Below, piece by piece: positions 2,819-48,164 of a DNA stretch of 64,000 bases. The notes below the pieces were generated by a model. That model was not told where the DNA came from. It searched no databases and saw nothing but the letters and a program-made list of their open reading frames with translations. Numbering within the stretch: position 1 is the first letter of the stretch; each line of letters begins with the position of its first letter. This DNA comes from Schmidtea nova (Eukaryota): NCBI GenBank assembly GCA_044892505.1, contig CM097882.1, positions 209,374,001 through 209,438,000 on the forward strand. Direction: 5' to 3'. A program made the position numbers and the translations under genes.

Positions 2819-3045
2819 TGTTGGGTATTTATCAGTTAGTCGGTGCTGTTTGCCTGACTCCTTTGTGTTCTTATAGGAATTATTTAAAAACAACATAGTA
2901 AGATTTATTTGAAAGTGTGACACATTTTACAATAACTATTCAACACAATTCTTTGATAATAATAATTAACAAACACATTGCCAAAATAATTAAACAATCC
3001 ATGTGCAATATTAACAAAGACATATATTTCAAAGAAATAAATTTC
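2819..3045 (-). repeat. Partial 5' LTR of the minus-strand Gypsy element
   Basis: Terminus TGTTGGG at 2819 adjacent to the PBS; first ~60 bp resemble LTR ends at 40132 and 43860-43923; runs into the 25-bp satellite. Confidence 0.65.
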
Positions 3046-3335
3046 AAAATACCGCAACGTAATATATTTCAAAATACCGCAACATAATATATTTCAAAAT
3101 ACCGCAATGTAATATATTTTACATACCGCAACGTAATATATTTCAAAATACCGCAACGTATTATATTTCAAAATACTGCAACGTAATATATTTCAAAATA
3201 CCGCAACGTAATATATTTCAAAATATTTAGAATATATTACGTTACGGTATTTTGAAATATATTACGTTGCGGTATTTAAAATATATTACGTTGCGGTATT
3301 TTGAAATATATTACGTTGCGGTATTTTGAAATATA
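3046..3335. repeat. 25-bp minisatellite (CAAAATACCGCAACGTAATATATTT), orientation flips near 3228
   Basis: About 7 units in one orientation followed by about 4 in the reverse orientation. Confidence 0.95.
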
Positions 3336-3649
3336 TGTTGGATCCATCATTTGACCAACATTTGATTATATAAATAATAATAAGAAAATAAATACGAATA
3401 AATTAAATTAATATATTTGAAAGAAATTCCATTAAAAGGAAATAAAAGTAATAAATGATATTGTAAAAATTATAAGAAAACAAAATTAAGATGAAAAAAT
3501 ATAATAAGAAATGAGATTTAATGATTAAAATATATATGATATGTTTACAACAAATAATTAATTAAGAAATAAATAATAAATTGATTAAAACAAAATTCTT
3601 TACAAATAAATATATAAATAAATTGGTATAATGACCTTCAGCTTGACGC

Positions 3650-3700
3650 TGATTGGCCAACCGGTTGATCTGATCAGTATAAATACTGAACCAGAATCAG
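3650..3700 (+). promoter_or_regulatory. LTR promoter (ATTGG/CCAAT-like box + TATAAA)
   Basis: CTGATTGG...GATCAGTATAAATAC, conserved at 41666-41705 in the related solo LTR while the flanks diverge. Confidence 0.7.
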
Positions 3701-4860
3701 ACAACTAAGCACTTATAATTTCATAATTTTCTGAAACAAAACTTTTTTGCAGTTATCAGTGAATTGAAAGATATGGATTGAATTTTAGTATTCTATGTTT
3801 TTAATTTTTATCATGATTTTTTGTCATTGCTTATTGAAAAAATGTATGAATAATCACTGCCATATTAATTTTATATGATTTAAGCTTAGTTTTGGCTTCC
3901 TTCCACTGTGTAATCGGTGGAAGGAGGCGAGATGAATTATTTTTTTGGTATTATGATTTAAGGGGGCTCGTGTTCACCATGAAATCGGTGGAAGGACGCA
4001 GACTTCGCCTGAGTAGATTAAACTACTTCGTGAAGTTAGGCCGTCTTCATGGTATTAAGTGTCATGAAGAGGGTAGGATTTTTTAATGATTTATTACTGA
4101 GCAGTATAGCCAGATTACTAAAATTTTTATTATCAAATATATAGTATGATTAATCAAGAACTGAAAGAATTTTATTATTTAATAAATAACTTATAACTTA
4201 TAAATAACTTATTTCTTTTTGAGATTGCCATCGAGGATTTGAAGCGGGTGACGGCTGATATTTTTTGAAGGTGAAGGGTATAGTCTATTGAACACTTCCA
4301 AGAGCGATATCGTCCAGGTGACTTAGCACTGCTAGCGGATAAAAGGGTAGCCACCAACTGAATAAATCGAGGTAGATGCTCACAATTAGAGTAGAGCAGA
4401 TTTTAAAAATCCAAATCTTTGTAAAGGGTATCGTAGGAATAAGTGGTAGAAATGAGTGAAATTCGAACATTCTCCATATTAATTATCATTTCTGATCCAT
4501 AACAAATAGAACAAATTAAAGTCATCACAGCTGAACTAAAATTATGCACATTGAACAGCAGGTAAGTAGGTCCATTCCGATGTCAGCGTTAGTGTGGGTA
4601 GCCCGTAATGACCTACCGTATCTCATATTGATCGATCAACCAACTAGTGACTAAAATCAATGAAAGAAAGAAATTAAATTTACTATCCTGATCCCTGTAC
4701 ATAGGGCAGAAGAACTTATTTTTATATTTTGTAAATTATCAACCTGATTGCTGTAGATAGCACATGTACAACTGAATACAATAAATGAGATTTCTGATCG
4801 CGACAGTGTTGAAATATATAAAATGTATTTTACTTCACAATTTCTCATTTCCGTACCGGT

Positions 4861-5331
4861 TGGTTCAGCCCGGAACAAATGAAAATACAACCCATAAAAA
4901 ATCAATGATCTCAGCGAGCGGGTGAAGAATACAGAACTGAGCTTGAGGCAACAAAAATCGAGTTAAGAAAATGCCTCAAGGCGGTCACCGCGTCATTCAT
5001 AGACCTTGAGTTGAAGCAATTAATCCGACCAATTACCTATCAACATTGGTCGGAAGAGAAAGCAGGATGTTCAAAGGGAACAAATACCGAAGCTCCGGCG
5101 CAAGTTCTTGAAATCGAGATTCCGACTGTACCAAAAAGCTCATCAACAATCGAAATTAAAAAGAAGAAAAATAAGATGGGTGCCAGACAACGAAGGTGGA
5201 AGAAACAATTCGAGCAGAAAATGATCCAACATAACGATGATCTTCCTGAAATCGATCTATCGACAAACTTTGTTACATTTGATGACGATTTTTTGAAGTT
5301 TTTTGAATTAAATTTTGTTAAATTTAGTTAA
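4861..5331 (+). pseudogene. LTR-internal ORF of unknown function (coiled-coil-like + basic region), premature TGA at 4906-4908
   Basis: WFSPEQMK...SQRAGEEYRTELEATKIELRKCLKAVTASFIDLELKQLIRPITYQHW aligns with WFAPARMK...SQRTAEDYKMEWEATKIELWKCLHSVTATYIERELKSQIRPVTYQRW at 42797-43180. Confidence 0.75.
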
Positions 5332-5612
5332 CTAACGCTTATCGTTTGTAAAATTTATAGTTTTGTTATATTTTCTTTTGTGCTTAGATTTGTAAAGTAG
5401 GTAAAATAAAGTATTTATTAAAAATTTAAAAATTAAATTAAATCAAATACAAATTACATTGACAAAAGTGCTAACACAACTCGCTAAATGACAAACATTA
5501 GGAATATAAAACCCAGATATATAAACAATTTTTCGAATTATCTGTTGATATTGTAAAGAAGGGGGTAGGAAAATTAAAATTAAAGATAATGAATTCAGAG
5601 GAAAGTAAAGCG

Positions 5613-5845
5613 TAAGTCCTTCTATCGGCAGCAATGGACCCGTGAACATAAATGGGGAGTAGTTCTAGTGAAAGAGCTCACCTGCCCATCATTGTTCAAA
5701 CACCTTGCACATTTCCAACTCGATTATCCAGGGAAATAATCGAGGGTGCTTGTGTGTCGTGAAAGCATTTTATGTTTGGTCTTAGATAGAGGCATCCCTA
5801 GAGCGTTTATTATCTTTTTGTTTTAACCCATCCAGGACCACAACA
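5613..5845 (+). ncRNA. Conserved structured RNA element at LTR 3' end (copy 1)
   Basis: Several stems with compensatory changes relative to 43551-43787; shares the CCTTCTATCGG(C/T)AGC..TGGACCC core with 36229-36250. Confidence 0.7.
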
Positions 5846-5851
5846 TAAATT

Positions 5852-5870: not shown

Positions 5871-6333
5871 AAAATGGTTTTTGTGCGAAAAGTTGAATCC
5901 AATAATAACAAGGAGTTTTAAAGTGCCCCTCAACCGAGAATGTAATTGATCTTTGTGTAAAAAGTAAATGCAATATCAACAGGGAATATCAACAGACGAT
6001 TAAAAATTGACATTAAATAAAATAAATAAACGTAAATAAAATATGTCGGGACGACAATTTGATGAAACAAGGGGAAGTTTTAACATCGGAAAACGAAACA
6101 TATCACTACTTTTAACTGACACAAATCGAGCAAATAGAGAAACAAGATATTGAAAATATTTATTATTTAGTAATGAATGACAAATAGAACAGCAAACATA
6201 TTACCAATATCAATTATTTAGCAATAAACGACAAATTAAAAGAAACGGAAGAATTTCTAAACGCGGAAAAAAAACATACGAGGAATTATGCGAGAAAATA
6301 AGTCGAATAAGAGAATCCGGATTCAAAGAACCC

Positions 6334-6684
6334 ATGACACAAACTGAAGAAACAACAGAGCTAATAAAGATAATGCAAAGAATAGACAAATTAGATATAA
6401 CTACTAGATACAAGTGGTACCGAGTGCGATTAGAAAATGCTGATTTAAACATAAAATGCAGACAATTAGAGCAACAATTAACCCCAACATACAACAAATG
6501 GACAATGCAAGGAACCGAGACAGCTAAGAAATTTAAACTATGTTACATATGTCGAGAAAGAGAAAATAAAATCATGTTTTTACCTTGTGGACATTTTCGG
6601 TTTTGTAGAATCTGTGCGACCAACTGCGACAAATGCCCGATGTGCAATCTCGAAATAAGTGAAACAATTGTCGTGTATTTATAA
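6334..6684 (+). CDS. C-terminal RING finger (C3HC4, IAP/MDM2-like) protein, probably 5'-frameshifted
   Basis: CYICRERENKIMFLPCGHFRFCRICATNCDKCPMC followed by ISETIVVYL at the C-terminus, typical of IAP-type RINGs. Confidence 0.9.
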   Translation: MTQTEETTELIKIMQRIDKLDITTRYKWYRVRLENADLNIKCRQLEQQLTPTYNKWTMQGTETAKKFKLCYICRERENKIMFLPCGHFRFCRICATNCDKCPMCNLEISETIVVYL

Positions 6685-7175
6685 TAAATAAATTTTGAAA
6701 TTGAGTAATATTATTTGTAATGAATAAAATATGAGAAGTAATAATGGCAATGGCAGAAATCATGATAACAATTAATGTTTATAAATAATTTTTGAGCTAC
6801 TCACGAGTAGTCCGTTAAGCACCCATTAAGCACCAACTGATCAACTTACCCGAGATGTATAGAAAGGGTCCCATCGCGGAAATTGGAAAGCTTTTGTGAT
6901 GTGACTGATCACCCCATCTTGCATTAGTGGACCAATGCGATCTTTTTATATGTTTTGGTTGGGGCGAAAGTGGGGGAAAACTCAATGAGGTTTAGGTGCA
7001 CGCAGAAAATATAAAAAGAGAGAATAGAAAACTGATCAGTAGGAGTAGAGAGAATAGTAAACGAATAAGCAGAACGACAGTTAATGTGATAACTCGTATA
7101 AAAATGGAGATAACTCAGCTGAGAATAAGTTTATGATAACTAGCGAAGTGGATAATTGCGGTTAACCGGTTAAAC

Positions 7176-7495
7176 AGATTAGTTGAATACCCTGTATAAT
7201 GGGTCAAGGGCCAATGAGCCAGATTAGTTGAATACCCTGTATAATGGGTCAAGGGCCAAGGAGCCAGATTAGTTGAAAACCCTGTATAATGGGTCAAGGG
7301 CCAATGAGCCAGATTAGTTGAATACCCTGTATAATGGGTCCAGGGCCAAGGAGCCAGATTAGTTGAATACCCTGGATAAAGGGCCAAGGGCCAAGAAGCC
7401 AAAGTAGTCGAATACCCTGAAAGAAGGGTCAAGGGCCAACAAGCCAGATTATTTGAGAATACCCTGAAATAAGGGTCAAGGGCCAATGAGCCATA
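7176..7495 (+). repeat. 45-bp tandem repeat (~7 copies) in the element leader
   Basis: AGATTAGTTGAATACCCTGTATAATGGGTCAAGGGCCAATGAGCC units start at 7176, 7221, 7266, 7311, 7356, 7401, 7446. Confidence 0.95.
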
Positions 7496-8265
7496 TTAGA
7501 ATTACCTAGTTAGGCAGGTGATTATCCTTTAGGAAGGTATTTTCCCTAGGGAAGGGCCAAAGAGCCAGGGCGTAGAGAGCCAAGTGAATAAGTGAATAAA
7601 TTAAATTAGGGCATAGAGAGCCAAGTGAATAAATAAACAACAGAGAGAATATAAGGCAGAATTGTAGTTGTCGACGAAGTAAGAATAGTGAGCACTAAAG
7701 TTTGATTAATACGAGTAAAGATGATTATGTAACCTAGAGATTCAGTATGCATACAAGTGGAAATAGAAATAGGAGGATTTAGAGTTGACCGGAAAAACCG
7801 GTAGAAAATCGTAAGAAGAGTGAGTTGTGATGACATAATGAATAGTGATAAAATGATAATTGAGTCAGGAGAACTCTGGGGAATTAAAGCGTTTGAGCGA
7901 CAAATTAATTTGGGAGACCGAGGGAAAAGTAATGAATTTATTTGATAACGATAGATAATTATTACGACCATATAGATAATTGTGACCAGTCAATAGATAA
8001 TTTAAATAGACTAAAATAAAGGGGAAACCGGGAATGGGGAAATAATGGAAACCCAATAATGAGGAATAAAAGCGCAACGATAACAATGATGTATCGTTGA
8101 AGTGACTTTTTAATTTAGATATACAGAACAGAACAAGTCAAACTAACCAACCAAGCAATCAGAATACGATAATAGAGAGACAGGAAAATTGATAAATTAC
8201 AGAAAAGTAAACCAAGATCAAGAGCAGCTAAAACTCAAAAAGTTGATAATTCACAGCGAAATAAA

Positions 8266-10041
8266 TTGAGATCAAGAGCAGTCAGTACTACAACTCAAAA
8301 AGTTGAAAAGTCACAGAAAAGTAAATCGAAACAAAGAGCAACCAGTGTTACAAAGAAAACAAATCCTAAAGGAAGTAAATCAAGAAAAGTAATAGTAGAG
8401 AAGTCCAAAATCGAAAACAACAAATTATCAAAAACTAACGAAAGTGAAACAGAAGAAAGTTCGAGTGAAACCTACGACAATTATAATAATACTGAAGCAT
8501 CAGATAACGAGTCAATAAACCCAAAAGAAAAAGAAGCAGAAATCAATAAAAATTCAAACGAAACGAATAACGAGCATAACAGTGAAACAAAAGGAAACGA
8601 GAGTAAAACGACACAAGACAGCGGAATCGAAATGAACGAACCTAAAGAAGAAATCAAAGATAAATTTACCGGAGAACCATTTAATGGAGATGCCAGCAAG
8701 TTGGAAACGTTTTTAAAAGAATTTGGTATATTTGTAGAAGTGTGTAAATGGAAACCAGAAACGATAAGGAGCAGAATTCAGTTATATTTAAAGGACAGTG
8801 CGTTAGATCTATACTTAGAAGCTAAAAATTCGGACGACCAACTCGATAGTTGGGAAGAGATAAAGAAATTTTTCCAGCAAACTTTTGGAATAAATAAAGT
8901 ATTAAATGAAGCCTTTACAGAATTTTCAATGAGAAAACAAAAAGTTAATGAATCAAATGCAGTATATGCAAGTGAATTAAAGAAATTGGCTAAATTAGCA
9001 TTCAATCAAAATAGTCCCATGAGTCCAGAATTGATGGCAGCAATTTTTGTGGGAGGACTGAGAAGACCCGATATAAGAGCACAAGTTGGATGCCAAGGTT
9101 GCAAAACAATAGATGAAGCGTTGGAAGTCGCCAACAGATTTGAATTACATATGATCGGAAGCGAAGGAAGAATTTACCTAGCAATGGATACGACACAAAA
9201 TGAACAAGCAATAAAGATAAATAACCACATTTCGAATTCACAGCAATTGAACCGACCACCACCTCAAAGGAGAAATGAGGGAAACAAAGTACAAAATTAC
9301 GGAAATCAAAATAATTACAATACGCAAGGACAGACAAAACAATGTCAAACTTGTGGAAAGTTAGGACATTGGCAACAAGAATGTTTCATAAACTTAAATT
9401 GTAAAAAGTGTGGAATAAAAGGACATTCGGAAAGCAGATGTTACCTAAATTCATGTTATAACTGTGGACAACCAGGCCACATGGCAAAAAGCTGCCAACA
9501 ACCAAACAATCAACGAAGGAACTGGTCGAACAACGGAAATCGACAAAATTATGCTAATCAACAGAGTAATTATAACCAGAACAAAAGTACCACCAAGGAA
9601 ATACATTTGCTACAAGAAGTTCAGAGATTGACAGAGTTAATAAATAATACACCGAGAGGAAATCAACAAACAAATCAACAACAAATTAATATGATGAGAA
9701 AAACAGAAAGCGAAAATGAACGATTAAATCGAGAAAGTCAAGCACGACATGCTCAAGAATGGGCTAGAATACAAAGAGAAGACGAACAGAAACGACAAGA
9801 AAGAGAACGGCAACCATTGAGAATTAATATGATGAGAGCAACAAATCAAACAAGAGACAACAAGGAAGATATTGAGCCGGAAACAAACCAAATAAACCCA
9901 AATCCGGTAGATGAAGAAAACCAAAAAGAAATATTGCAAAAAAACGAAGAAGTTATCAAACAAAAAAGGATGTTGGTAGTCATGCCAAACGATCATGTAT
10001 TTCGATTTGACTATGATGAAAAAGAGGAAGTAGAGTATTAA
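8266..10041 (+). CDS. gag: Gag (capsid + CCHC zinc knuckles)
   Basis: PFNGDASKLETFLKEF...WKPE...LYLKDSA capsid motif; knuckles CQTCGKLGHWQQEC, CKKCGIKGHSESRC, CYNCGQPGHMAKSC. Confidence 0.92.
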   Translation: MRSRAVSTTTQKVEKSQKSKSKQRATSVTKKTNPKGSKSRKVIVEKSKIENNKLSKTNESETEESSSETYDNYNNTEASDNESINPKEKEAEINKNSNETNNEHNSETKGNESKTTQDSGIEMNEPKEEIKDKFTGEPFNGDASKLETFLKEFGIFVEVCKWKPETIRSRIQLYLKDSALDLYLEAKNSDDQLDSWEEIKKFFQQTFGINKVLNEAFTEFSMRKQKVNESNAVYASELKKLAKLAFNQNSPMSPELMAAIFVGGLRRPDIRAQVGCQGCKTIDEALEVANRFELHMIGSEGRIYLAMDTTQNEQAIKINNHISNSQQLNRPPPQRRNEGNKVQNYGNQNNYNTQGQTKQCQTCGKLGHWQQECFINLNCKKCGIKGHSESRCYLNSCYNCGQPGHMAKSCQQPNNQRRNWSNNGNRQNYANQQSNYNQNKSTTKEIHLLQEVQRLTELINNTPRGNQQTNQQQINMMRKTESENERLNRESQARHAQEWARIQREDEQKRQERERQPLRINMMRATNQTRDNKEDIEPETNQINPNPVDEENQKEILQKNEEVIKQKRMLVVMPNDHVFRFDYDEKEEVEY

Positions 10042-10127
10042 TTAATAAAGTAAACAAGACGATTCTGGGAAGGACAAAACTACCCCGAGAAGCATTTTTA
10101 CAGACAGAAGACGAAGCGGAGATAAAA

Positions 10128-11247
10128 TTGAAATCAACCGACATCTGGGAAGATTTAGAAGTACCAATGAATAAAATGAATTTTACTGTTATCCGAGAAA
10201 CAGACGAAAACCAAGATAAAGCGAAACCAAAACCGGTAACAAAAGTCAAAAGCAGGGCATTAAAGATATTTGAAGAGAGAATCAAACAGAGAAAAGCAAT
10301 AGAAATGAAAAAACGAAGAAGCTAAATAGAAGAACCAGAAAACAATGACAAAAATGAAGAAATACCACCAGAAAATGTACTAAATAAAGTAGAACAGACA
10401 GCACATATAAACATGTTAAGAAACAACTAGAGAATTTTCAGATGTAGAAAGTGACAGTGATGTCAGTAGTTTAGCAGCAGATATGCTAAAGGAACCAGAA
10501 AATGAAGACAACAAGATAAAAGTAGCGAAGACGCCAGAAAATATTCAAATAAAAGAAGATGAAATTGAAAAACTATTGGATAATGCGTTAGAAGTGATTT
10601 ATAACGAAGAATTTATTGATAAAAAGCGATATCGAAAATTTATAAAAGCAGTATTACGAATGAACTACAAAGAATGTTTACAAAGTCGGGAAGTAGAGAT
10701 ATTATCAGGATACGTCGTCAAGTTATTAGAAGAACCACTCCACGAATATATTATCTTGATAGAAATAAACAAATGTTCACCAAGAATTTGGATCAAATCT
10801 ACATGCACAAACGAAATTTATCGATGGGTGGAAGACAGATTGGGAAGTTCATATAAAAACAAATTCATATATTCGGGAAATGAACTTGTAGAACGAGGAA
10901 CGCATTTGGTAGCAACAGGCCTATGGCCAGGAGAGATAACAACATTATCAACATGCGACAATAAGAAAGAGGAGAATTTACAAGAAATCGCAAAGGAAGC
11001 AAATACGTGTTTTGAGATGAGAATTAAACCTCAATTAATAGAGAAGAAAGAAAGAATTCTCAGAGGAAATTTAAATTCACTAATAGAACAAATTATTCAA
11101 CAAATCGACAAAAATAGGAAAGAATTAATGAGAACTGAATATGAGAAAGTAAAACAATGCATCAAAAATATACGAGATACCAGCCATACGAGATATTCGC
11201 CGTACAAAACTTGGAAAGAATCGCAAAAATTGGAAAGCGATGTTTAA
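10128..11247 (+). pseudogene. Accessory coding region of unknown function, broken into pieces (10128-10325, 10326-10430, 10483-11247)
   Basis: Continuous A-rich coding-like sequence with stops/frameshifts; no recognisable domain. Confidence 0.5.
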
Positions 11248-12259
11248 ACGAGGAGAAATAGGAGATTTGAAAATCAAAGTGAAATTACCAAACGAAGACA
11301 CAAAGGAAATTGAAGTAATCGCGGATTGCACAGTAGAAGAATTAGTTGATGTTATCTATGAGACTTTATTACAACGCGAAAAAGAAGACGAATTGGAAGA
11401 CGATATTATCATAAAATATAACGAACACGTACTAGGAGATCATGACGAGAGACGAGTATATAAAATTGGTATATGTGACAACTATCAAACAATCCACGTT
11501 ATCAGAATGGATGATTCACCAAGAGAAACACCAAAAGACGAAAAAAGGAAACAAGAACGTCGAAGAGAAGAGATGCACAAATTGAGACAAATAGTAGAAA
11601 TTTATCGAAGATGGGAGAAACAATGGGATGATAAAGAGAAATGCTGGAAAGCAAAAGGAGATATATATGAAGAAGGATTTAGACCAGAAATGGAAGACAA
11701 ATATGAACCAGAAACCAGAAGAGTTTGTATGGTGACAAGAAAAGTCATGCCAACAGATTTAGATGGACCAGAAACCGCAGCAATATGGTTAGAAACGCAG
11801 AGACGAAAAGCTAACGAACTCATAGAATTATTAAAAGGAAATTTACAAGGAAAAAGGCGAACGATCAAAGGATTAGCCGAATTTTTCGTAGCAAGCGGCG
11901 AAGATATAACCAGTTTAGGAAAAGTAGCAAAAGCAGTAGCAGAATATAAACGAGTTAACGAGTGGTGCCCAGAACAATTAGACAATGTAATCAAGAAATG
12001 GAGAAACCAAGAAAACGTCCAAGAATCACCGCAGAAAGTACATTTAAAGATAATATATCCAGATCGGGAAAAGGAAGAGCTTTGGGTAAGATTTACTGAA
12101 AAGATTCGAGATGTGAAAAAGAGATTGAAATATGAAACACCATTTCACTTACAACATCAAGGAAGATCATTAGAAAACGATTTGGAAATCGGGATAACGC
12201 CAGCACAATTAGATCTCGCAAACACGTTAACAGTAGACGCAATAGCAGATCAACCATAA
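11240..12259 (+). CDS. Protein with two ubiquitin-like (beta-grasp) domains
   Basis: N-terminal LKIKVKLPNEDTKEIEVIADCTVEELVDVI...IKYNEHVLGD...YKIGI...TIHVI and C-terminal LKIIYPDREKEELWVRFTEKIRDVKKRL...LQHQGRSLEND match the UBL pattern. Confidence 0.7.
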   Translation: MFKRGEIGDLKIKVKLPNEDTKEIEVIADCTVEELVDVIYETLLQREKEDELEDDIIIKYNEHVLGDHDERRVYKIGICDNYQTIHVIRMDDSPRETPKDEKRKQERRREEMHKLRQIVEIYRRWEKQWDDKEKCWKAKGDIYEEGFRPEMEDKYEPETRRVCMVTRKVMPTDLDGPETAAIWLETQRRKANELIELLKGNLQGKRRTIKGLAEFFVASGEDITSLGKVAKAVAEYKRVNEWCPEQLDNVIKKWRNQENVQESPQKVHLKIIYPDREKEELWVRFTEKIRDVKKRLKYETPFHLQHQGRSLENDLEIGITPAQLDLANTLTVDAIADQP

Positions 12260-12314
12260 ACTTAAAGAGAAAAGAGTAAAAGAAAGTGAAGACACTCAGC
12301 AGCTAAAGAACACG

Positions 12315-12956
12315 ATGCAGATCACGCCAGGAACAAGTGCAAGACAGTATGAAACCACATCAATAAAAGTCCAAGAAAGAACTGTACCACAATCATATGG
12401 CGTAGAAGAAATCTTAGCAGACAGCGATGACATACTGGAAGAATTAACCAATTTGACAAAAGTAAAAAACAATAATATCTTCGAAAGAGTTCAAGAATTA
12501 CCCACAACGTCACAAGTAATCAATGCCGAAGATGAAGTCGAACAAGAAATAGAGATAGAAGAAGTGAACGAAATACCTGAAGAAGAAGCAAGAGGAACAA
12601 ATACAGAAAACGAACAATTAACACAAGAAATGGAAAGATGGTGGGAACAGAGAAATAATGAACCAAGAGATGTTACAGAAGAAACTAGACGAGAGACAAG
12701 ATTAGTAGAAACAGGTACAACAATGGATAGACGACCTACAGGTAGACCGAAGACGGATCCAGCAAACATAATCAACAAAACCAAAGAGGAAAGGAGACAA
12801 GAGAAATGGGAATTATGTTTTAGGAAGCTCAACAAAATAGCAGAAGCAAACGACAAAGAAATAACGCAAAAATGTCAAGGCGAAGGATGGATATCAAAAA
12901 CACTAATGGAAATACTGGCGATAATTGATCCAGAATTAAAAGATGGTGGAGAATAA
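12315..12956 (+). CDS. Acidic/low-complexity accessory ORF
   Basis: 213-aa Glu-rich ORF, no recognisable domain. Confidence 0.4.
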   Translation: MQITPGTSARQYETTSIKVQERTVPQSYGVEEILADSDDILEELTNLTKVKNNNIFERVQELPTTSQVINAEDEVEQEIEIEEVNEIPEEEARGTNTENEQLTQEMERWWEQRNNEPRDVTEETRRETRLVETGTTMDRRPTGRPKTDPANIINKTKEERRQEKWELCFRKLNKIAEANDKEITQKCQGEGWISKTLMEILAIIDPELKDGGE

Positions 12957-13300
12957 ACGAAATAAGCGACAAGGCTAAAGCACAACGCAATCGCACCAAT
13001 CTTACCCGAACTGATAAAAGAAAAGGCAAAATCAAGCCATTTAGATTGGCAAGGGACCACAAAGTTGATAAAAAAGTTAACTGAAGATGCAGAAAACAAT
13101 AATAAATATGTGATAGCAATTGCGTATACAATCTACAACCTATTAACGTTGAGTAGAGGTAAACCAAAATCTAAAACAATAGAGAAGCATATAAAAATAC
13201 AGCAAGCATCATAGCAAGAAAAATAGAACCATACGTCATCAGTAGAGGAGGATGGGAAACATTTGCAAAAACGAATCAAAGAAACAGTCAATCAAAGAAT

Positions 13301-15432
13301 ATGAAAAAGAAATTCAAAGAAATTCTAGGAGAATTAGAAAAAGAAAAGTCCGGAACAGGAAGTGGAAAATCTTCACTGAACCTGAATTCAATCATAATGA
13401 TGATATTAATATGGCTAATTAGTGCTGAAGGAGTAACGGCGTTCGAAGTATTTGATTGCGATCAAATGACATTAGGAGAAAAATATTCATTGAGAGGAAC
13501 TGAACAATGCAAGGATGCAACTCCAACAGAATTAAAGGTATTAAATAGTAAACAAATATATCACGTATATCAAGAAGCCGAATTAATAAAGACGACAGTT
13601 AATGAATGTAAAATATATAAAACAAGATTTGCTTTTTATTGTGGACACCATCACTAATCTGCAATCGTAATGCCAGGAACAGAAAGAGAAGCAATAATGT
13701 TACAAGGAGAAGATTGCAATAAATTTTTCAAACATGGAGAAGTCGAAACAAGTGATCAAATAAAGATAAAAGGAAAAGCTGGAGTAATACTACAACAAAC
13801 CTACTATGTAGCAGAAGCTATCACAGGAGGAGAAGGTTATTGTCAAGGAACAACATATCCGATATTTGGAGTACCAGCAACCAACATGGTAGTAATCAAC
13901 ACATATACGGTATAATTGAAAGCATATGAAGCATATTTTGACCCAGCAACAGCAATGTGTAAAATTGAAGCCAGTACTTGTCAAACCGGTATGTCAACTT
14001 TAAGTACAGAGCACGAGCAAATGAATGCCAATTGCAATTATTAAAAGAAGCAGAATTCGACGAAGTAAAAGGAAAAATCTTTCAGGAAGAAGATGATGAC
14101 GAAGTAGCAAGAGACAAACGTCTACAGGAGACAGTAAAAGGAGAGAAACAGTTCAAAACTAAAATACGAGAAAAAGAGGTAAAAATGAGAGATACGCCAA
14201 CAGTATTGGTTACATCGAACGCAGATATAGGGATGAGGTTTGTAAAAGGAAAACCGGCATTAAAATGTGGTGTATCTATGTTAGAAACTAATTACCCTGG
14301 TATTTACGTGTCAAGGCAAGCAGCACCAAATGCAAAACCTAAGGTAGATACTACAGACATCAAATTGCACGTATATTTAAATAACAAAATGGATTTTTTA
14401 TTTCATAAAAGTCAAGCATCAATGGAAAAAATATACTACGATCTCATTAACAACGACTGTATATTAAATCGAGAAATATCAAAGACGAAATTAGCAGAAG
14501 CAATTACAAACCCAGATAGTGCGATGCTATTACTGCCACTTAACGAAGGTCATTTTGGAAGAGTAGTTGAAGAAGTTATGTATGCATATATATGCCGAAA
14601 GACACACGCAAATGTAGCAACAACGACTAGATTACGACGAGGACAATGTACCAATGAGCTAAAGATTGAATATAAAGGAAAAATAAGATATGTGCAACCA
14701 GTAACAAGGATCATTAATCCATTCAGTTTTGAACCAAACCCTTTCAATTGTAGTAATGCATATGGACCATTATATCAGAAACCAGACGGAAATTGGGTCA
14801 TGTTCCCGTCAAGAACAGAAGTACAACCGCCTAGAGAATTCGAGCTGATGCAACTGTCAAAAAGACAAAAATTTTCCAATGTAGATGTAAATAATGGAGG
14901 AATTTACAGTGCAAAAGATCTTGAAGCACCACGACAAAATATATTATTCCCAGCTAGAAGAGAAGCGGTACTATCTAGTATTGTAACGATAACAGGAGGA
15001 ACAAGCTATCAAGGAGGACCAAATTATGAATTATTATTGTCACCAGCACATTTTAAGAAAGCAACAGAAAATATGATGAAAGCAATGTGGGGACGATTTT
15101 TAATTTTCGGACAGATGATGGCCGGAATACTAGGTGTAATTTTGATCATACAAATAATACGAGTGATAATCACACAAATGCTAGCATGCTTTGATATTTA
15201 CAAAAGAGAAAAGAAAGTTAATTGGAAACTAATAGTAGGATTTTTACCCTTCTTAGCTAAAACGATGGTATTACATGGTCACTCCAAAGATATTCATAGA
15301 ATAAAACGATTATTAAAAATACTGGCAAAAATGAAAGGAACAGATAAAGACGTGGGGAGAAAATTCAAAAAGATAATGAAAAATGAGCAAGCGAGACTGC
15401 AATTAAAAAGAGAAAGAAAAGGATTATGGTAA
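13301..15432 (+). pseudogene. env: Envelope glycoprotein, chuvirus (Jingchuvirales)-like class III fusion protein; 2 in-frame stops + 1 frameshift
   Basis: Signal peptide then AFEVFDC...YSL...EQC; ECKIYKTRFAFYCG; CILNREISKTKLAEAITNPD...GHFGRVVEEVMYAYIC; CTNELKIEYKGKIRYVQPVTRII; C-terminal TM GQMMAGILGVILIIQII. Stops at 13655-57 and 13913-15. Confidence 0.8.
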
Positions 15433-15585
15433 AGAATAAGAGGAGATAAAACTCATAATGATTCCAGTGATGACGATGATAACAATGACGACTGCGAAGG
15501 AGGACAAAGATACAGAAACCAAGCACCACAATATAACGACAAGAATCCAGTAGAAGCGTGGAAATGTTACGCACCTCCACCAACA

Positions 15586-17115
15586 ATGTATCAAGAACCA
15601 CTACAGACATTAGGACCCAGAACAATGCAAATGATGCCAATGCCAAATATATACCCAGTTATACCAGAAGATTATAAACTAAGACGATGTAGAAGTATGG
15701 ATCCGCAAGGAGATTCACACACAATTGCAGTTATGTCATCGAATATAGGACCAGTATTAACCACAACCATAGAAATAAACGGAAAAGAAATAGAGGCAAT
15801 GATAGATACAGGAGCAAACATTTCGGCGATAGATATTAAATGGATACCGCAAGAACAGAGACAAGAGATTGAAAGAACAAATGTTCATGTAATTGCATGT
15901 AGTAAAGAGATAGTTGAAGTTGCAGGGAGATGGTGGGTGAAAATACGACACCAAAATATAGAAATTGAAACATATGTAGCAGTAATACCAGCTTTAAGCG
16001 TACCATGTATAATCGGAACAGATTTAATGCCAACATTATTCAAAGAAATAATAATTGATCTTGGAACAATGAGATTAAAAGACAGAACAGGAAAAATATG
16101 TGCCATGGAAGCAAAAGTAATAAGCTCAAAACAAATGATAATACCAGCAAGAAAAGAGAAAATATGTTATGTCAAAATATATCCTACAATAGAAGGGGAC
16201 GTGGTCTTCGAACCAATCAAGAGATTCAGAATAAATATGCTCAGAGCAGAGGAAATTAACACAGACAGTCAAGTAGACAGTGAGAAAATTGAGGTTGACA
16301 AAGAAATCGTACGAAAAGCCAAGGAAATAAACGAAAGATGGGAAATCAAACGAGAAAAAGACGTATTATGGGATATACGACAAATAATTAGCGATTACAC
16401 ACGAGGATTCCCAACCAAACCAGTTATAATCGAATTACTAAGAAAAATACCAGAGATACTCATATTACAAGATATAGGAGGCGCAACCGCACTACACAAT
16501 GCCATAAATTGGGGTAAAACGGAAAAGGTGAAAGAATATTTGAAAATAGCAAAAGAAACGAATCAAAATCTCGACATTGGAAATCGAGAATTGGAAACGC
16601 CAATGATGACAGCAACACTAAACTTAGCAGATAAAGAAATAGTAGATATACTGATAAAGGCCGATTTCAACTGGACAGCTCGTGATAGAAGAGAATATAC
16701 AGTTTTGAACCACGCAATAATGAGCGCAAATCAGATGATACTAAAACATATAACCACCAACCTCACATGGGAAATCGATGAATTAATCAAAGTAGAAATT
16801 ATAAAGGAAGCAATTCGGAAAGGAAACACAAGAACCATACGGAAACTAATACAATGGAAATGGCCGAATAACGAAACATGGGTATTAGACATAAATAAAG
16901 AATTTAGCGAAGGACAGAACGCGCTATTGAGATACCTATTAGAATTTACGTGCGATCAGAAAACAATGTTAGCACTAATAAACAGAGGGAAAATAAATAT
17001 CAGTAAGAACGAGGAAGAATACAAACTAGAAATCAAAAAGAAAGCGTTATTCAGGAAAATTTGGATATGGTGCCAAAAACAATTACGCCAAGACATTTAC
17101 GCTACAAGGATTTAA
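15586..17115 (+). CDS. Retropepsin aspartic protease fused to ankyrin repeats
   Basis: IEAMIDTGANISAI and CIIGTDLM protease motifs; GATALHNAINWG, ETPMMTA, YTVLNHAI ankyrin repeats. Confidence 0.88.
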   Translation: MYQEPLQTLGPRTMQMMPMPNIYPVIPEDYKLRRCRSMDPQGDSHTIAVMSSNIGPVLTTTIEINGKEIEAMIDTGANISAIDIKWIPQEQRQEIERTNVHVIACSKEIVEVAGRWWVKIRHQNIEIETYVAVIPALSVPCIIGTDLMPTLFKEIIIDLGTMRLKDRTGKICAMEAKVISSKQMIIPARKEKICYVKIYPTIEGDVVFEPIKRFRINMLRAEEINTDSQVDSEKIEVDKEIVRKAKEINERWEIKREKDVLWDIRQIISDYTRGFPTKPVIIELLRKIPEILILQDIGGATALHNAINWGKTEKVKEYLKIAKETNQNLDIGNRELETPMMTATLNLADKEIVDILIKADFNWTARDRREYTVLNHAIMSANQMILKHITTNLTWEIDELIKVEIIKEAIRKGNTRTIRKLIQWKWPNNETWVLDINKEFSEGQNALLRYLLEFTCDQKTMLALINRGKINISKNEEEYKLEIKKKALFRKIWIWCQKQLRQDIYATRI

Positions 17116-18482
17116 CCGATTTCCAAGAAAAGTATAAAACGATAATAAAGGAATACAAGAAAATAGTGGAGATATTAAACGATCCAGAAAAATTTAACCA
17201 AGCGATAAACCAGAAAGCGGAAAAGAGTAAAAGGATACTCACACCATTGTTCAACGCAAAAATAGATTACCAGGAAAGATTAGATGCAATACACAAAAAA
17301 GCAAAAGAACTATTACCAGAATTCAAGGATACTAAATACGCCTTAGAAATACTTGGCGCGATAGTAGAAAAAGTACACGCGTATGTAAAAGGAGTGTGCA
17401 ACGCAGATGATATAACAATTATAAAAAGAGAAATGCCAGTTGCATTTTTATTAACTAAGGAAAGAATAATGCCGATTCATAGAGCATTGAGAGCAGGAAA
17501 AGACAGTAAAGTAATCAAAATCGCAAGATTAATGCATCAATGTGGATGTGACATGAATATGATAGACGAAAAAGGAGACACCCTCATGATATACGCAGCA
17601 AGAGCAAAAACAAAAATCAGAGTATTAAAAGAGATATATAAAGCAAGCGCAGGATTAATCGGAAAAACTGTCAAAGACAACACAATATTGGACGTGACAT
17701 TATTAGGTCCAAATTGGGTAATGTTGAATTTCATTAAAACGATAACAAACCAGGAAGAGATAGATTATTTAACAGAGACTGTAAAACGACCCAGCGTATT
17801 GACAATGATGCAAAACATCAAATTAACAGAAGAAGTACTAAACTGGAAAATACTAAATACCAACAAACCAGCATTCAGAATCAACAATTTCATGGAGAAA
17901 AACCAAAATTGGTGTATCAAAAGCACACTATTAACTTATAAATGGCCTGAAATTGTAGAAATTTTCATGAGAAGAGAAGACCTGAGATTTACAAACAAGC
18001 CTAAAGAAACGGAAAAGACAGGAAAATGGAAAGAACTGATGAGAACACACCTCCAAAGTTGGATAAAAGCCAAGAAAGAAATTATACAGTTCCAGTTAGA
18101 CAACAAAAAGATACCCGAAAATATAGAATTCCAAGAATTCGAAGCAAGTAACCTAGCAACACTATACTATGCAAAACTAATAGAAGCAATTAATGTCGAG
18201 GACGACATTTTTAACGAGCCAGGGAGAGATAATAATACTGACAATGATGATGACGATGAGGAAAACAAGGACGACGAGAGAAATAATGACGATGATGATG
18301 ATGATGAGAACAGTCACGAAAATCCAGAAAACCACGAACAAACCAACAAAGAAGATGAGAGTCAAAAGAGAAATACAAAGAAGCAAGAACCCAAAGAACA
18401 AAGAGAAGACAGCGATAAAACAATCATGAAAAGAAAAGAACAAGTTACAAAAGGAATCCCTTTTTCAGACCAGAAGTATTAA
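17061..18482 (+). CDS. Ankyrin-repeat protein with acidic tail (probable frameshifted continuation of the PR-ANK ORF)
   Basis: MPIHRALRAG...DEKGDTLMIYAARA...KDNTILDVT; overlaps the previous ORF in the -1 frame. Confidence 0.75.
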   Translation: MDMVPKTITPRHLRYKDLTDFQEKYKTIIKEYKKIVEILNDPEKFNQAINQKAEKSKRILTPLFNAKIDYQERLDAIHKKAKELLPEFKDTKYALEILGAIVEKVHAYVKGVCNADDITIIKREMPVAFLLTKERIMPIHRALRAGKDSKVIKIARLMHQCGCDMNMIDEKGDTLMIYAARAKTKIRVLKEIYKASAGLIGKTVKDNTILDVTLLGPNWVMLNFIKTITNQEEIDYLTETVKRPSVLTMMQNIKLTEEVLNWKILNTNKPAFRINNFMEKNQNWCIKSTLLTYKWPEIVEIFMRREDLRFTNKPKETEKTGKWKELMRTHLQSWIKAKKEIIQFQLDNKKIPENIEFQEFEASNLATLYYAKLIEAINVEDDIFNEPGRDNNTDNDDDDEENKDDERNNDDDDDDENSHENPENHEQTNKEDESQKRNTKKQEPKEQREDSDKTIMKRKEQVTKGIPFSDQKY

Positions 18483-20350
18483 TATTCGCAATAATCATAA
18501 CACTCGTGGGACAATGTGAAGCAACGGAACAAGAGACATCAGTAGAAATGGAAAGCTCAATACAAAAAGCATCAACACAAATGATGAATTCAAAGGATAT
18601 TGAACAAGTATGTTGGGTAAAAACGAATTCTCGGAAATAGCAACCCATTACGATGCATAGTCCCAGAACCCGATCAAAAAACCATAATAATAGACGAAAT
18701 GGATATGGAAACATGGTACAGGATAAGTACAATCAAAAAACCTAAAGACGCAAAATCACACAAAACAGTTACATGCCAAGTATACGAGACACCTAAAGCA
18801 GCCAAAATAGTTCGATATGAGTTCACCAATGGAATAGACCTTCCAGTACCATTTTATTTTAAAATAACAAGAGCACCAACAATAAGAAAAGTCTTACAAC
18901 AACCAAGAACCAAAATAACAACACCGAGTATAAGGAATACAACAGATAAACCAGAAGCAAAAAGAAGGAATACGACGGATAAACCAGAAGCAAAAAGACA
19001 TACGAAACAAACCACAAGAGTAATCTATAATCCCAAAGTGTTATGTATAGCACTCATATTAACAATATTGAAGCGATTGGAAGAAGGGATAGAGATGGAT
19101 ACAATGACATTAGTAGACCTAGAAGATACACAAACGACAAATCAGAAATGTTGGTTTAGAAACGACGAGAAATTAGAATTAAGCGAACCAAGAGCAAGTC
19201 AGAAACAGGAAGCAGGGAAAACAAGCAAAGTAAACAAGATAGTAAAGATAAAAACAGACAGAACTCATAAACTATGTTTATTAGAAAAAGAAAGAAATAA
19301 GAAAGGAATAACCAATTGTAAAACATTTCAAGCAGGAAAAATAATAACGTTCTTAAGAAAAGTAGAAACAAACAAAATTTCCAGAAATGAACCATAACGT
19401 TAGAAATAACGGGAATAGAACAAAACGTAAAAGGAGTATGCTGGAGAAAATACGAGAAAGAAACGAATAAACATAAATCATCACAATGTCAAACAGTCAG
19501 AGGAACAACTGCAGTACAAATAAAAAGCTTAGAAAGAAATCAAACCTATAAAATATGCCTAGTAAAGGAAAATGATCAAATAACGAGAGAAGATTTAGAA
19601 TGCAGAATATACAAAGCGCCAAACAGAGTGAAAACCAATAGAACAATACGAAAGAATAAAAGACAACAAAAACCGAAGCATACCACTACCGAAAGTCAAA
19701 CAGAACCAGACAGGAATACCTCAGTAACACTTATACTTTGGAAATTAGATAAAAGAACAGTAGAAATATGTTGGTCAATGATCCAGAGACACGAAGGAAG
19801 ACAGCCACAACAATGCGAAAAGATGAACAAAGAAGAGGAGATCAGAATGGAGAACCTACAATTGGACAAAAAATACGAAATATGCGCAATAGAGAAGACA
19901 GATATATTCGGAAAGCAACAAGAAAGATGTAAAACATATTATACACCTACCAATACTACGATCAAAAGAAGAAGCAAGAAACTAACCTTCGGAGAACTGA
20001 ATCAAACAAAGGAAGAAAAGGAAAGTGAGGAAACAATAATAGATTCTTATGCAAAATGGAAACCAGAAAAAGTAATCCAAGAAGTCAAAAGGAAACAACA
20101 AGAACGACAACAATTGGAACTCAAATTAAAAGGACAATATGGAACAATGATCAATCAGAGCAAATTCACCCAAATCAATCTTAACAAGCAAGGAAGAGAA
20201 CTAATTGGAGTAGGAATACTGGCAGTAAGCGTACCAGTAATAATAATATTAGCAATAATATGGCTATTGGAAAAAATATTTATGGAAAAAGAAACCAACC
20301 AGACAATGGCCAGGTATAAAAATCATGAATTGCAAAATCAAAATACCTGA
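18450..20350 (+). pseudogene. Type I membrane protein with ~4 fibronectin type III-like repeats
   Basis: Signal-like VLIFAIIITLVGQCEA; repeated VCW...I..L....Y.IC......C..Y..P pattern; TM LIGVGILAVSVPVIIILAIIWLL; broken by stops and frameshifts. Confidence 0.6.
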
Positions 20351-20842
20351 AGAAGTGAAGAAAGAATTCCAAAGAAGAACCAAAGGTAAAGAATTTTGGA
20401 AGCAAATAGAAGACGAAAAGCGACACGATGAAAAGGCAGTGATGATAGTATAGAGAGTGGGATATGACTGTAAATAATATTGTAAATTACAAAGCATTAC
20501 CGTATATAATATGGGTATTAATATTATAGAGTATATAAAAAGAGAAAAGAGAAAAAATAATATTGTATCTAATTTAGAAAATGAATGTACGAGAAGAAAC
20601 AACCGAAATGACTATGCCTATGAGATGGAAAGCACAATGCGAAACGTTAGTCCGATCAATCAATGCACTACAGAATCAACTGGGAGAGAAGCAAAATATA
20701 TTAGCAGACTGTAAGAACAACATTTTTGAATAATTACATAAAATAGAAGAGCAACAGAGAATAATAACAGAAATGACAAGAGAAAATCAGAGATTATGAC
20801 AAACAATGGAAATAAATCAACTATCAAGAAGGAAAGAATCAG

Positions 20843-21300
20843 AAATGAGTCATCGATGCGTCATGGTGTGAGTCTACAATGAGTCATTAGGGTGAGTCAC
20901 CAATATGATGAGTCATCGATGAGTCATCGTTTTAAAATAAAAAAATTAAAAATTTTTCTAAAAAATAACTTGTCAGAAAATAACTGAGAGTGTGATGAGT
21001 GATACAAACCAAAAATAATTTCAAAATAATAAAATTGAGAAAGTTCAAAAAAAATTCTTATTTTTGTATGAGTCATAAAAATTTTAGATGAGTCATCGAT
21101 AAAGAATCGATTGGTCAAATAAGAAACAATTTTTAAAAAAATTTAATGAGTCATCGGTGAGTCATATAAATAATTTTTTAAAAAAAGTTGTAGAAAAAAA
21201 ATTGTAGAAAAAACAGAATATTTTTCGAAAATAATAATAAGTCATCGTTGAGTCATCGATGCGACATAAAAAAATTTGAAAAAAAAGGTAAAAAAAAAGG
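20843..21300 (+). repeat. TGAGTCA-rich ~0.5-kb repeat, copy 1
   Basis: About 10 TGAGTCA motifs, often as TGAGTCATCGATGAGTCA; near-identical to 21728-22250 and 23368-23930. Confidence 0.9.
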
Positions 21301-21320
21301 TAGAAAAAAGATTTTAAAAA

Positions 21321-21727
21321 TATATTACGTTGCGGCATTCTAGAAATATATTACGTTGTGGTATTTTGAAATATATTACGTTGCGGTATTTAAAATATAT
21401 TATGTTGCGGTATTTTGAAATATATTACGTTGTGGTATTTAAAATATATTACGTTGCGGTATTTTGAAAAATATTACGATGCGGTATTTTGAAATATATT
21501 ACGTTGCGGTATTCTAGAAATATATTACGTTGCGGTATTTTGAAATATATTACGTTGCGGTATTTTGAAATATAATACGTTGCGGTATTTTGAAATATAT
21601 TACGTTGCGGTACTTTGAAATATATTACGTTGCGGTATTTTGAAAAATTTTACGTTGTGGTATTTTGAAATATATTACGTTTTGTATTTAAAATATATTA
21701 CGTTGCGGTATTTTGAAATATATTACG
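21321..21727. repeat. 25-bp minisatellite (ATATATTACGTTGCGGTATTTTGAA)
   Basis: About 16 tandem units; same family as 3046-3335; further short arrays at 22255-22345 and 22870-22925. Confidence 0.95.
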
Positions 21728-22250
21728 TTTGAAATGAATTATCGATGACGTCACTTTTTTCAAATTTGAAATGAGTCATCGATGCGTCTTGGTGTGAGTC
21801 TACAATGAATCATTAGGGTGAGTCACCAATGTGATGAGTCATCGATGAGTCATCGTTTTAATATTTTAAATTTTTAAAAATTTTCTAAAAAATAACTTGT
21901 CAGGAAATAGCTGAGAGTGTGATGACTTTTACAAACAAAAAATAATTTCAAAATAATCAAAATTGAGAAAGTTCAAAAAAAATTCTTATTTTTGGATGAG
22001 TCATAAAAATTGTAGATGAGTCATCGATGAGTCATCGATTGGTCAAATAAAAAAAATTTTAAAAAAATTGGTGAGTCATCGGTGAGTCATAAAAATATTT
22101 TTTTAAAAAAAATTGTAAAAAAACAGAATATTTTTCGAAAATAATAATAAGTCATCGATGAGTCATCGATGCGTCATAAAAAAATTTTGAAAAAAAGTTT
22201 GAAGAAAACAGAATATTTTTCGAAAAAAAGGTTAAAAAAAGATAGAAAAA
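21728..22250 (+). repeat. TGAGTCA-rich repeat, copy 2
   Basis: Starts with ATCGATGACGTCAC; collinear with copies 1 and 3. Confidence 0.9.
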
Positions 22251-32900: not shown

Positions 32901-34337
32901 TATTATTCGTGAAATAAAAAGCCATGATGTCACAAGGGAACATCCATAGTTCAGTGACATACGATTAAATAAAAAGCAAAGGCATCAATATTATGTATTG
33001 AATAAAAATAGCAACAAAAAAATTAAAATAAATAAAAAACCGAGTTGTTCACACTTTATTATGGCACAATAGACAACATTTTCTTTTGGAATATTGAGTT
33101 CGAAAAATCCTCGTTTCATGAGGGAGTGATTGCCTTCACTACATTTTATCATAATATTGAGGATGGAGAATAGGATTGCATAAAAATTTTTCACGATAGA
33201 GATTCTCCACGTTGAAAATTTTTTCCACGTAAAGAAGAAAAATAAATCCATTAAATTTTCCAAGTTATGAATTTTATTTTTTTGTTGTCGTGTTTTTTGC
33301 CTGCTTGTCGATTTCAGTAGACTGGTGAACTGAGAGTCTAGAAACCGAACAATGTTTTAAATAAAAAAATTCATAATAGAATCAAATTACCCTCAAAGGA
33401 GATCGTTGATATCTGAAAGTGAAATAGAAAATCGATAATAACATTATCGAAAATCTCTTAGTGTCTAAACAACCAATCAGGTTGAGCCTATTTGTAAATA
33501 GGCAAGAATCTAATAAATCCTTTGGTTATTTTAAAAAAGGATTAAATATTTTTTGATTAAATAAATTTTTAGTAAAAATTTTTTTAAAAAGTGCACTCTA
33601 ATTTTGCAGGAAATTTTAAATTTGAATTAAGAATTTAAATAAGTTAAAAAGACCGAAATCTGATGATTATAAATTATAAGCCAAAGTTTTACTAGATCAA
33701 TTTCATTACCAAGGCCTCAGAGAAATTTTAAAGTTAAAATGTTGAAATTTTAATAAATATTTTATTACAAATTTAGAGCAAGATAGACAATAGGATTAAG
33801 ATATAAATAGAGTTTACATGAATTTTAAATATAAAAAACATAACAATTTAAGGAAATCGCGATAATGATAAAAATTTGGGTCTAAATAAGGGTAATTTAT
33901 ATATTCCCAAATATGTGCATTTTCTGAAGGAATAATTGATCACCTAATTGAGTTGCGATAATATTTTCGAATGCATGCTTGCGAATAGAGTAAAAGCGCT
34001 CAAATAAATTAATTGATTAATAAGTAAATCACAGTTTGGCGAAAATATTCAAATGAAAATCTCGTATAAAACATCTACCGTGATAGAGCAGATAAATTAA
34101 GGGGGACAAAAATGGGCAAGAAACCTTCCATCGGTAGCCCTTGGACCCAGGAGATATTCGGTCAATCATAGTTTCGTATTGACGACGCTCACTGATTGCG
34201 AATACCCACCCACTTGTTACAGTACCAACGTTACATAGTGACGGGTAGCAAGATGGTTTTTTCAATGTTTTATGTGTTGAGTTGTTGATGAGAGCCATAG
34301 TAACGTCAAGGTCATATTGACGATCAACAACCCACCA
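29921..34337 (+). mobile_element. 4.4-kb solo LTR (inner)
   Basis: TGTTGGG...CCCACCA termini, ATAT TSD; homologous along its length to the outer LTR. Confidence 0.92.
34110..34337 (+). ncRNA. Conserved structured RNA element at LTR 3' end (copy 2)
   Basis: ACCTTCCATCGGTAGCCCTTGGACCC core; stems TATTCG/CGAATA, TTGTTAC/GTAGCAA, GTTGTTGAT/ATCAACAAC. Confidence 0.7.
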
Positions 34338-36214: not shown

Positions 36215-36439
36215 AAAATGGGCATTAAACCTTCTATCGGTAGCCCTTGGACCCAGGAGATATTCGGTCAATCATAGTTTCGAATTTTCGACACACTGAT
36301 AGCGAATACCCTCCCATTTGTTGCTTTACCAACGTTACATTGTGATGGGCAACAAGATGGTCAATCTAATGTTTTGTGTTGAGTTGTTGATGAGAGCCGT
36401 AGTAACGTCAAGGTCATATTGACGATCAACAACCCACCA
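36215..36439 (+). ncRNA. Conserved structured RNA element at LTR 3' end (copy 3)
   Basis: Near-identical to copy 2 amid more diverged LTR sequence; compensatory TTGTTGC/GCAACAA. Confidence 0.7.
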
Positions 36440-43550: not shown

Positions 43551-43787
43551 AGCGTAAGTTCTCCTAACGGCAGCAATGAACCCGTAAACATAAATGGGGA
43601 GTAGTTCTAGCGATAGAGCTCACCTGCCCATCATTGTTTAAACACCTTGCGCATCACCAATTTGGTTATTGAGGGAAAATAACCGAGGGCGCTCGAGTGA
43701 GAATAGCAAACATTTATGTATGGTCATGGATGGGAATCCCTAGCCACCATTAGAATTTTTAAATCTAAGCTCTCCATGATCCCAGCA
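43551..43787 (+). ncRNA. Conserved structured RNA element at LTR 3' end (copy 4)
   Basis: Compensatory stems relative to copy 1; AGTTCTA-GCGA-TAGAGCT GNRA hairpin. Confidence 0.7.
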
Positions 43788-48132: not shown

Positions 48133-48164
48133 AGTAGGGAAAAGTGAGCGCACAGCCCCACTTT

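Follow-up and report, generated by a model that had tools for sequence, protein, structure and literature searches.

The LTR ends of a giant retrotransposon family carry a stretch of about 230 letters in which base pairing has been kept across very different families, and which, in the reading towards which we incline, would serve, within the 5' leader of the genomic RNA, as the scaffold on which the tRNA-Pro that primes reverse transcription docks, perhaps with packaging as an additional role. In the window, that is, the whole 64,000-nucleotide stretch of Schmidtea nova DNA analysed, this element occurs four times; all four copies were found where the preliminary description had placed them and could be aligned with one another. 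The copies, and the retrotransposon to which the first of them belongs, are as follows.

5610..5851, forward strand: structured RNA of copy 1, comprising the last ~235 nt of the 5' LTR and the 6-nt spacer before the PBS
2819..5845, forward strand: 5' LTR of copy 1, its start being tentative (only TGTTGG seen upstream)
6181..20350, forward strand: Burro-type internal region with RING ORF, gag, fusion-glycoprotein env, protease and ankyrin, the frames being broken
34110..34337, forward strand: copy 2, end of the solo LTR 29921-34337 (target-site duplication ATAT; T-arm box 34143-34148)
36215..36439, forward strand: copy 3, end of the solo LTR 27604-36439, which is split by the copy 2 LTR (target-site duplication GTAT; T-arm box 36249-36254)
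43551..43787, forward strand: copy 4, end of the solo LTR 41306-43787 (target-site duplication CACT; T-arm box 43578-43583, D-arm box 43738-43743)

That the motif always lies at an LTR terminus, as first described, is borne out by its relatives, whose match ends at 5845, 34337, 36439 and 43787. Past 5845 some relatives of copy 1 run into the PBS and others into unrelated DNA, the same being true of copies 2 and 4, and target-site duplications bound copies 2, 3 and 4. Copy 1 is the end of a 5' LTR standing before a PBS for tRNA-Pro(UGG), its 3' LTR not being found within the window, and copies 2-4 are the ends of solo LTRs, that of copy 2 (4.4 kb) being nested within that of copy 3 and that of copy 4 measuring 2.5 kb. 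A covariance model, the training alignment of which included the four copies, recovered only these from the window (114-171 bits, the next best match reaching 11 bits). The four divergent families initially proposed reduce to two clades, formed by copies 1 and 4 and by copies 2 and 3, and the motif is indeed common to both. Copies 2 and 3 are 69-75% identical over most of the LTR, the LTRs of copies 1 and 4 have little in common apart from the motif (81% over 204 nt, and two short patches besides), and BLAST gave no match between the LTR of copy 2 and those of copies 1 or 4. Compared with a young relative, the copy 2 LTR (29921-34337) is 98-99.6% identical at both ends, with a middle that is 87% identical or unalignable, which suggests that the LTR interior recombines frequently.

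As judged from their coding content, the LTRs bearing the motif belong to Burro-type giant gypsy/env retrotransposons. Downstream (3') of copy 1 there follow a RING ORF, a gag with two CCHC knuckles, a fusion protein of the Monjiviricetes type, a protease and ankyrin repeats. A natural full-length copy of the copy 2 family, with LTRs 99.7% identical (3,416 nt compared), has a single frame of 4,991 codons in the order gag, MATH, fusion protein, PR, RT, RNase H, integrase, ankyrin; that is, a mononegavirus-like env fusion protein lies in frame in the order gag-env-protease within a PR-RT-RH-IN, MATH and ankyrin polyprotein of ~5,000 aa, and this one element is ~25-30 kb long with multi-kb LTRs. 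The same gene architecture has been described for planarian Burro elements (PMC6431247). In fact, Burro/GYPSM1 shares with the present elements the CCHC knuckles of gag, MATH, the mononegavirus-like env between gag and protease, PR-RT-RH-IN, ankyrin and the single ORF of ~5,000 aa, and the accessible part of that account covers proteins and sizes, the RNA structure of the LTR being absent from it (PMC6431247). The window element gave no match to RT, RNase H or integrase when compared with the full-length relative: its segment 15433-20350 follows that relative up to the protease and resumes at the ankyrin repeats, RT, RNase H and integrase missing between. It is, to judge from the sequence, a non-autonomous deletion derivative. 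Between clades, Gag is 33% identical over 461 aa.

Further features of the window were recorded. Positions 48120-62777 form a 14.6-kb near-perfect palindrome, masked with N near its centre, which holds two inverted copies of a DNA polymerase B/endonuclease VII fragment (Polinton-like). Positions 46202-47634 hold a Tc1/mariner-type transposon with inverted ends of ~135 nt and an open DDE frame of 364 aa. Three diverged repeat units of ~0.5-0.9 kb lie at 20842-24106 and are rich in TGAGTCA motifs, which we take to be AP-1-like; a 25-bp minisatellite is found within them and also at 2962-3348.

Genome-wide, the motif is far commoner than the four copies first noted, with about 17,000 copies: the core pattern gave 16,982 matches (control 1), and a variant pattern gave 690 (control 3), many more families coming from the latter and from by-catch. 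The exact PBS occurs 2,886 times (control 0). When 87 PBS sites were sampled in positional order, the core pattern stood upstream of 86, the remaining one having a 1-nt deletion in the loop, and additional PBS samples showed it in 30 of 30. PBS sites with a different preceding base yielded no new families, and a second tRNA-Pro PBS variant was sought with 0 found. Conservation is sharply bounded. In 48 LTRs of the copy 2 clade, identity is 0.63-0.77 upstream and 0.98-1.00 across the first 120 nt from the loop, with the step at about -20, a position that would fit a GRACCC box lying within the transcribed leader. Three near-identical LTR ends with PBS (L199-L201) were also seen at a spacing of 20.5 kb, which suggests a tandem array of elements.

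Outside this genome, pattern scans gave 2 matches among viral contigs and 12 among metagenome contigs, all judged to be chance, profile and covariance models (the latter tried on 9 of the 14 loci) giving them no score; no relatives were thus found among these contigs. The motif, proposed as novel when first described, matches no Rfam 15 family: there were 0 matches at gathering in the window, 0 at E<=10 in the surroundings of copy 1, and 7 weak matches, all far below gathering, in those of copies 2-3. A literature search found no description of the RNA, the text and supplements of the original Burro paper being material that could bear on novelty, and the accessible part of PMC11410931 contains none either.

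The fold starts with a short hairpin and the GRACCC box, continues with two long hairpins whose conserved loops are irregular, and closes with a terminal stem. In copy 1 its parts, with the adjoining PBS, are the following.

5617..5629, forward strand: short hairpin with a near-invariant 7-nt loop (5620-5626)
5635..5642, forward strand: GRACCC box, complementary to the T-arm of the primer tRNA, a candidate PAS
5643..5698, forward strand: first long hairpin; its stems covary, its conserved internal loop is irregular and a GNRA loop caps it
5701..5754, forward strand: second long hairpin; its stems covary, bulges flank its CC/GG pairs and its loop contains AGGGA
5769..5849, forward strand: terminal stem, its base reaching past the LTR end (5845) and into the spacer that precedes the PBS
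5794..5802, forward strand: CCCUAG box, situated in the terminal loop and with complementarity to two partners, the tRNA D-arm and the AGGGA loop
5852..5869, forward strand: 18-nt PBS, complementary to the 3' end of the host tRNA-Pro(UGG)

The evidence for this fold comes from comparing relatives. From 265 anchored hits, 6 badly anchored or truncated rows and the duplicates of one locus (L178) were removed, and the remainder was reduced to 39 representatives. These are 40-87% alike, on average 54%, and their alignment used the sequence only. An unsupervised scan of all 4-bp helix registers, with tree-simulated independent columns and permuted real columns as nulls, gave three helices that beat all 200 nulls of both kinds (family-wise P <0.005), and a fourth that was reached by 3 and 4 of the 200, respectively (family-wise P about 0.02). 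No single pair was significant alone in G-tests (E at best 0.42, and 0.08 if only complementary pairs are considered), and the five best column pairs are each complementary in at least 35 of the 39 rows. In a 40-row alignment, made up of 37 representatives and window copies 1, 2 and 4, the 49 pairs of the structure are formed in 78% of cells, compared with 64.6% after shuffling and 34-40% after sliding (a control that ignores relatedness), and two-sided changes occur at 39 of the 49. The excess of G-U over A-C cells (130 vs 53) points to a structure of the plus-strand RNA. Folding of single sequences is barely better than that of shuffles (z -0.57 to -1.98), so the case for structure rests on covariation.

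The earlier proposal of a conserved, covarying cis-element at LTR ends, unknown to Rfam, is therefore supported, and the stems then listed fall, with one exception, within the covarying helices. The exception is the supposed compensation of GUCC/GGAC by GUUC/GAAC, which is spurious: among 30 copy 4 relatives examined, 24 of them parsable, GUCC stands with GAAC in 20 of the 24. The two middle pairs of a GUCC/GGAC helix form in just 7 and 13 of the 40 rows, and a universal P1-like stem was likewise rejected, 49.6% of its cells being paired. Basal parts of the helices are variable (50-53% paired). In the copy 2 clade, positions 34130-34252 show no variant common to at least 3 of 83 rows, unpaired bases included. 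Of the loops pointed out initially, the GNRA-like one is present as a GNRA cap in 21 of the 40 rows, and the CCAAY internal loop corresponds to the CC/GG pairs with flanking bulges of the second long hairpin. The 7-nt loop 5620-5626 presumably follows a T-loop-like pattern. Also, the second hairpin and the CCCUAG box may form a kissing loop, with a mean of 4.3 bp against 3.3 in letter-shuffled controls (0/500 as good), although the pair barely covaries (partner-swapped 27/500) and is absent from the copy 2 clade.

The terminal stem indicates where the element would act. In 124 of the 126 PBS-bearing copies counted (5 of 130 without an exact TTTATG were left out, and window copy 1 was counted twice), a conserved U-rich tract forms 7-11 bp with the LTR end and spacer, the region being A/U-rich, so that part of this pairing is cheap. 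Pairing ends 1-5 nt short of the PBS, and the copy 2 clade has both a longer spacer and a longer pairing partner. Because the partner of the terminal stem exists only at the 5' LTR, the RNA element likely acts in the 5' leader. The spacer itself measures 6 nt in the window (5846-5851) and 10 nt in the copy 2 clade, the retroviral LTR-PBS spacer being usually ~2 nt. An A/T tract before a 3' LTR (L178) is roughly the reverse complement of the spacer, and the integrase may process unusually long ends.

The PBS is complementary to the 3' 18 nt of the host tRNA-Pro(UGG) genes (819 genome matches). These genes form a tandem array with a period of 308 bp (L255-L257, G000:C1 near 459.61 Mb), and among the matches listed 9 of 100 were Pro-body tRNA genes with an altered anticodon loop, TAT. 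Within the whole element, the best site of complementarity to the tRNA is that of the GRACCC box to the T-arm. This box pairs 7/7 in 24 of the 40 rows and 6/7 in 12, and its hexamer, conserved, upstream and complementary to the 5' strand of the T-arm as in a PAS, pairs in 33 of the 40 (top 0.15% of the 4096 hexamers), although the unrestricted match is not significant against shuffled tRNA (173/400 and 118/400 as good). With the T-arm slot preset, 87 of 5000 tRNA shuffles were as good (P 0.017), and with T- and D-slots taken jointly 29 of 5000, the slots being defined from the literature (T: HIV anti-PAS, nt 48-55; D: Ty1) yet picked after the match had been seen. In every one of the four copies the T-arm duplex is calculated at -13.8 to -15.7 kcal/mol. 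For the D-arm box, which also has an intramolecular partner in the AGGGA loop, the values are -16.0 and -16.7 kcal/mol in copies 4 and 1 but weak in copies 2 and 3, at -4.4 and -6.7 kcal/mol.

An alternative partner for the GRACCC box is the UUC of the 7-nt loop, where one-sided changes only were found in the 40 rows. In 18 of the 24 parsable copy 4 relatives the loop reads UCC and the box is still GAAC, which means that the intramolecular alternative is broken and the tRNA pairing intact. Compensatory changes against the tRNA are invisible because the tRNA is constant, and the box variants tolerated are transitions, which mutation also favours. Taken together, support for the tRNA pairing is moderate. 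It is a role, extended pairing with the primer tRNA beside the PBS, that was not among the functions first listed, and is the best supported of all.

The most likely mode of working is that of a retroviral PBS segment with a PAS, in a fold that is different, larger and of no known family. In HIV the PAS pairs with tRNA nt 48-55 (PMC3675109), further sources for the anti-PAS slot being PMC11251516 and PMC11181671, and for Ty1 extended contacts with the primer tRNA, including the D-arm precedent, have been described (PMC3592414), all as given in the accessible parts of these papers. The HIV-1 segment likewise combines an 18-nt PBS, an upstream box complementary to the T-arm of the primer and a structured U5 beside the PBS in the same crossing topology (PMC3675109, PMC11181671). 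In contrast with HIV-1 as there presented, the box lies here ~210 nt upstream behind three long hairpins, the primer is tRNA-Pro, the partner is about nt 50-57, the host is a gypsy-type retrotransposon and there is no sequence or Rfam similarity; this distance from the PBS is larger than that of the PAS described for HIV or HTLV-1 in the portions of the literature available. Ty1, with tRNA-iMet and a pseudoknot, resembles the present case in having extra primer-pairing boxes outside the PBS and a folded 5' RNA domain, whereas its boxes, in the accessible part of PMC3592414, lie downstream of a 10-nt PBS rather than upstream, inside the LTR, of one of 18 nt.

Under the docking model, annealing of the tRNA 3' end to the PBS would open the T-arm, with which the GRACCC box could then pair as a PAS at tRNA nt ~50-57. 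Three long hairpins would fold out ~200 nt and so bring the box near the PBS, and the CCCUAG box, once freed from the kissing loop, may engage the D-arm. Motifs standing in the 3' LTR or in a solo LTR would be duplicates that stay passive. The model leaves the invariant internal loops unexplained; they would probably serve Gag/nucleocapsid binding or tertiary contacts.

Among the cis-acting roles initially suggested, packaging/dimerisation is a live rival, and translation and 3' processing have little in their favour. That the element serves chiefly as a packaging/dimerisation signal for Gag, its complementarity to the tRNA being incidental, is in our estimate unlikely. Conserved internal loops and a GNRA cap are typical sites of protein or tertiary recognition, the copy 2 clade has no common variant at 34130-34252 in 83 rows even at unpaired bases, the window element keeps the motif without RT/RH/IN, and the kissing-loop candidate could also join two RNAs; this reading, however, leaves the T-arm match and the stem tied to the PBS spacer unexplained, and the kissing pair covaries little and is missing in the copy 2 clade. 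Packaging or dimerisation is compatible with tRNA docking and could be an added function. We regard it as decidedly improbable that the element works from the 3' LTR in 3'-end processing or nuclear export, for which the structured R regions of deltaretroviruses would be the model. The U/GU-rich tract after the second hairpin would suit such a role, but is explained by its pairing with the PBS spacer, present only at the 5' LTR; AATAAA is mildly enriched at -140 to -115 (10 of 38 representatives, the other upstream bins having 1-7), but neither a poly(A) signal nor a TATA box was found at a fixed place across families, and looking for retrocopies with a poly(A) tail following the second hairpin gave 0, which is uninformative. 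There is very little chance that the RNA is an IRES or translation enhancer: a large multi-domain RNA does lie 5' of an ORF of ~5,000 codons, but this ORF starts ~5 kb past the LTR end in the full-length natural copy examined, and no Rfam IRES matches.

Ribozymes are also to be weighed. By analogy, a self-cleaving ribozyme related to twister-sister might cut the internal loop at the C-A step, assisted by the T-loop-like hairpin, and yield unit-length, possibly circular RNA. We give this a small chance, as we do the combination of such a ribozyme with a fused tRNA-docking module. In 26 of the 40 rows, the internal loop agrees with the L1 loop of the human LINE-1 TS-like ribozyme at 8 of 11 residues, with a GCUCA strand opposite UAG and a T-loop-like hairpin nearby, as in the twister-sister/TS-like (lantern) ribozymes, where an extruded loop base docks on a stem-loop (PMC11620745, accessible part). 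Nevertheless, of the L1-loop residues (G7 C8 U9 C10 A11 A12 / G36 C37 U38 A39 G40; PMC11620745), as far as that part shows, equivalents of C37, G36 and A12 are wanting here, so that the TS-like L1 loop is not reproduced: C at the C37 position occurs in 0 of 40 rows, that of A12 is never A, and A12C nearly abolishes LINE-1-rbz activity. Moreover, a match at 8 of 11 residues is expected about 0.1 times over the available registers, the loop is larger, the hairpin lies outside the helix, covariation puts U-G at the position of the twister-sister base triple, and Rfam ribozymes gave no match at E<=10. If the combined reading were true, both LTR copies would be cleaved, setting free a giant RNA of unit length; this would circularise and undergo reverse transcription without first strand transfer, and Burro would be an autonomous env-bearing element with a retrozyme-like cycle. 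The HDV-like lead seen at first in copies 2 and 3 fares worse and its probability is close to nil. The likeness to P3/L3/P1.1 consists in a 3-bp stem carrying a 7-nt UUC loop and in a purine pair downstream of it, and in 39 of 40 rows the box offers a pairing partner to loop base 2; yet G, which HDV-like ribozymes have in L3 as G25, stands at loop position 6 in 1 of 40. P1 (6-7 bp starting with G) is found in 5 of 40 rows (6.5 shuffled), P2 closing after C-N-A-A, with J4/2, in 6 of 40 (5.2 shuffled), and both in 2 of 40. Thus, next to the HDV-like topology of PMC4908430, as far as its accessible part goes, there is likeness in a P3/L3-like hairpin and a possible P1.1-like pairing, P1, P2 and J4/2 not rising above chance here.

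Retrotransposon LTRs usually diverge past recognition, and here a fold of ~230 nt has been retained across families with Gag 33% identical, in ~17,000 copies. The motif is, in practice, a marker for Burro LTR ends of any family, and being a short RNA it is directly testable for tRNA docking, Gag binding and self-cleavage. Furthermore, it provides a natural covariation data set for the reverse-transcription initiation complex outside retroviruses and yeast Ty, and bears on the debate about the generality of PAS-type primer contacts, in the placement of which the 2002 PAS phylogeny paper may also have a bearing.
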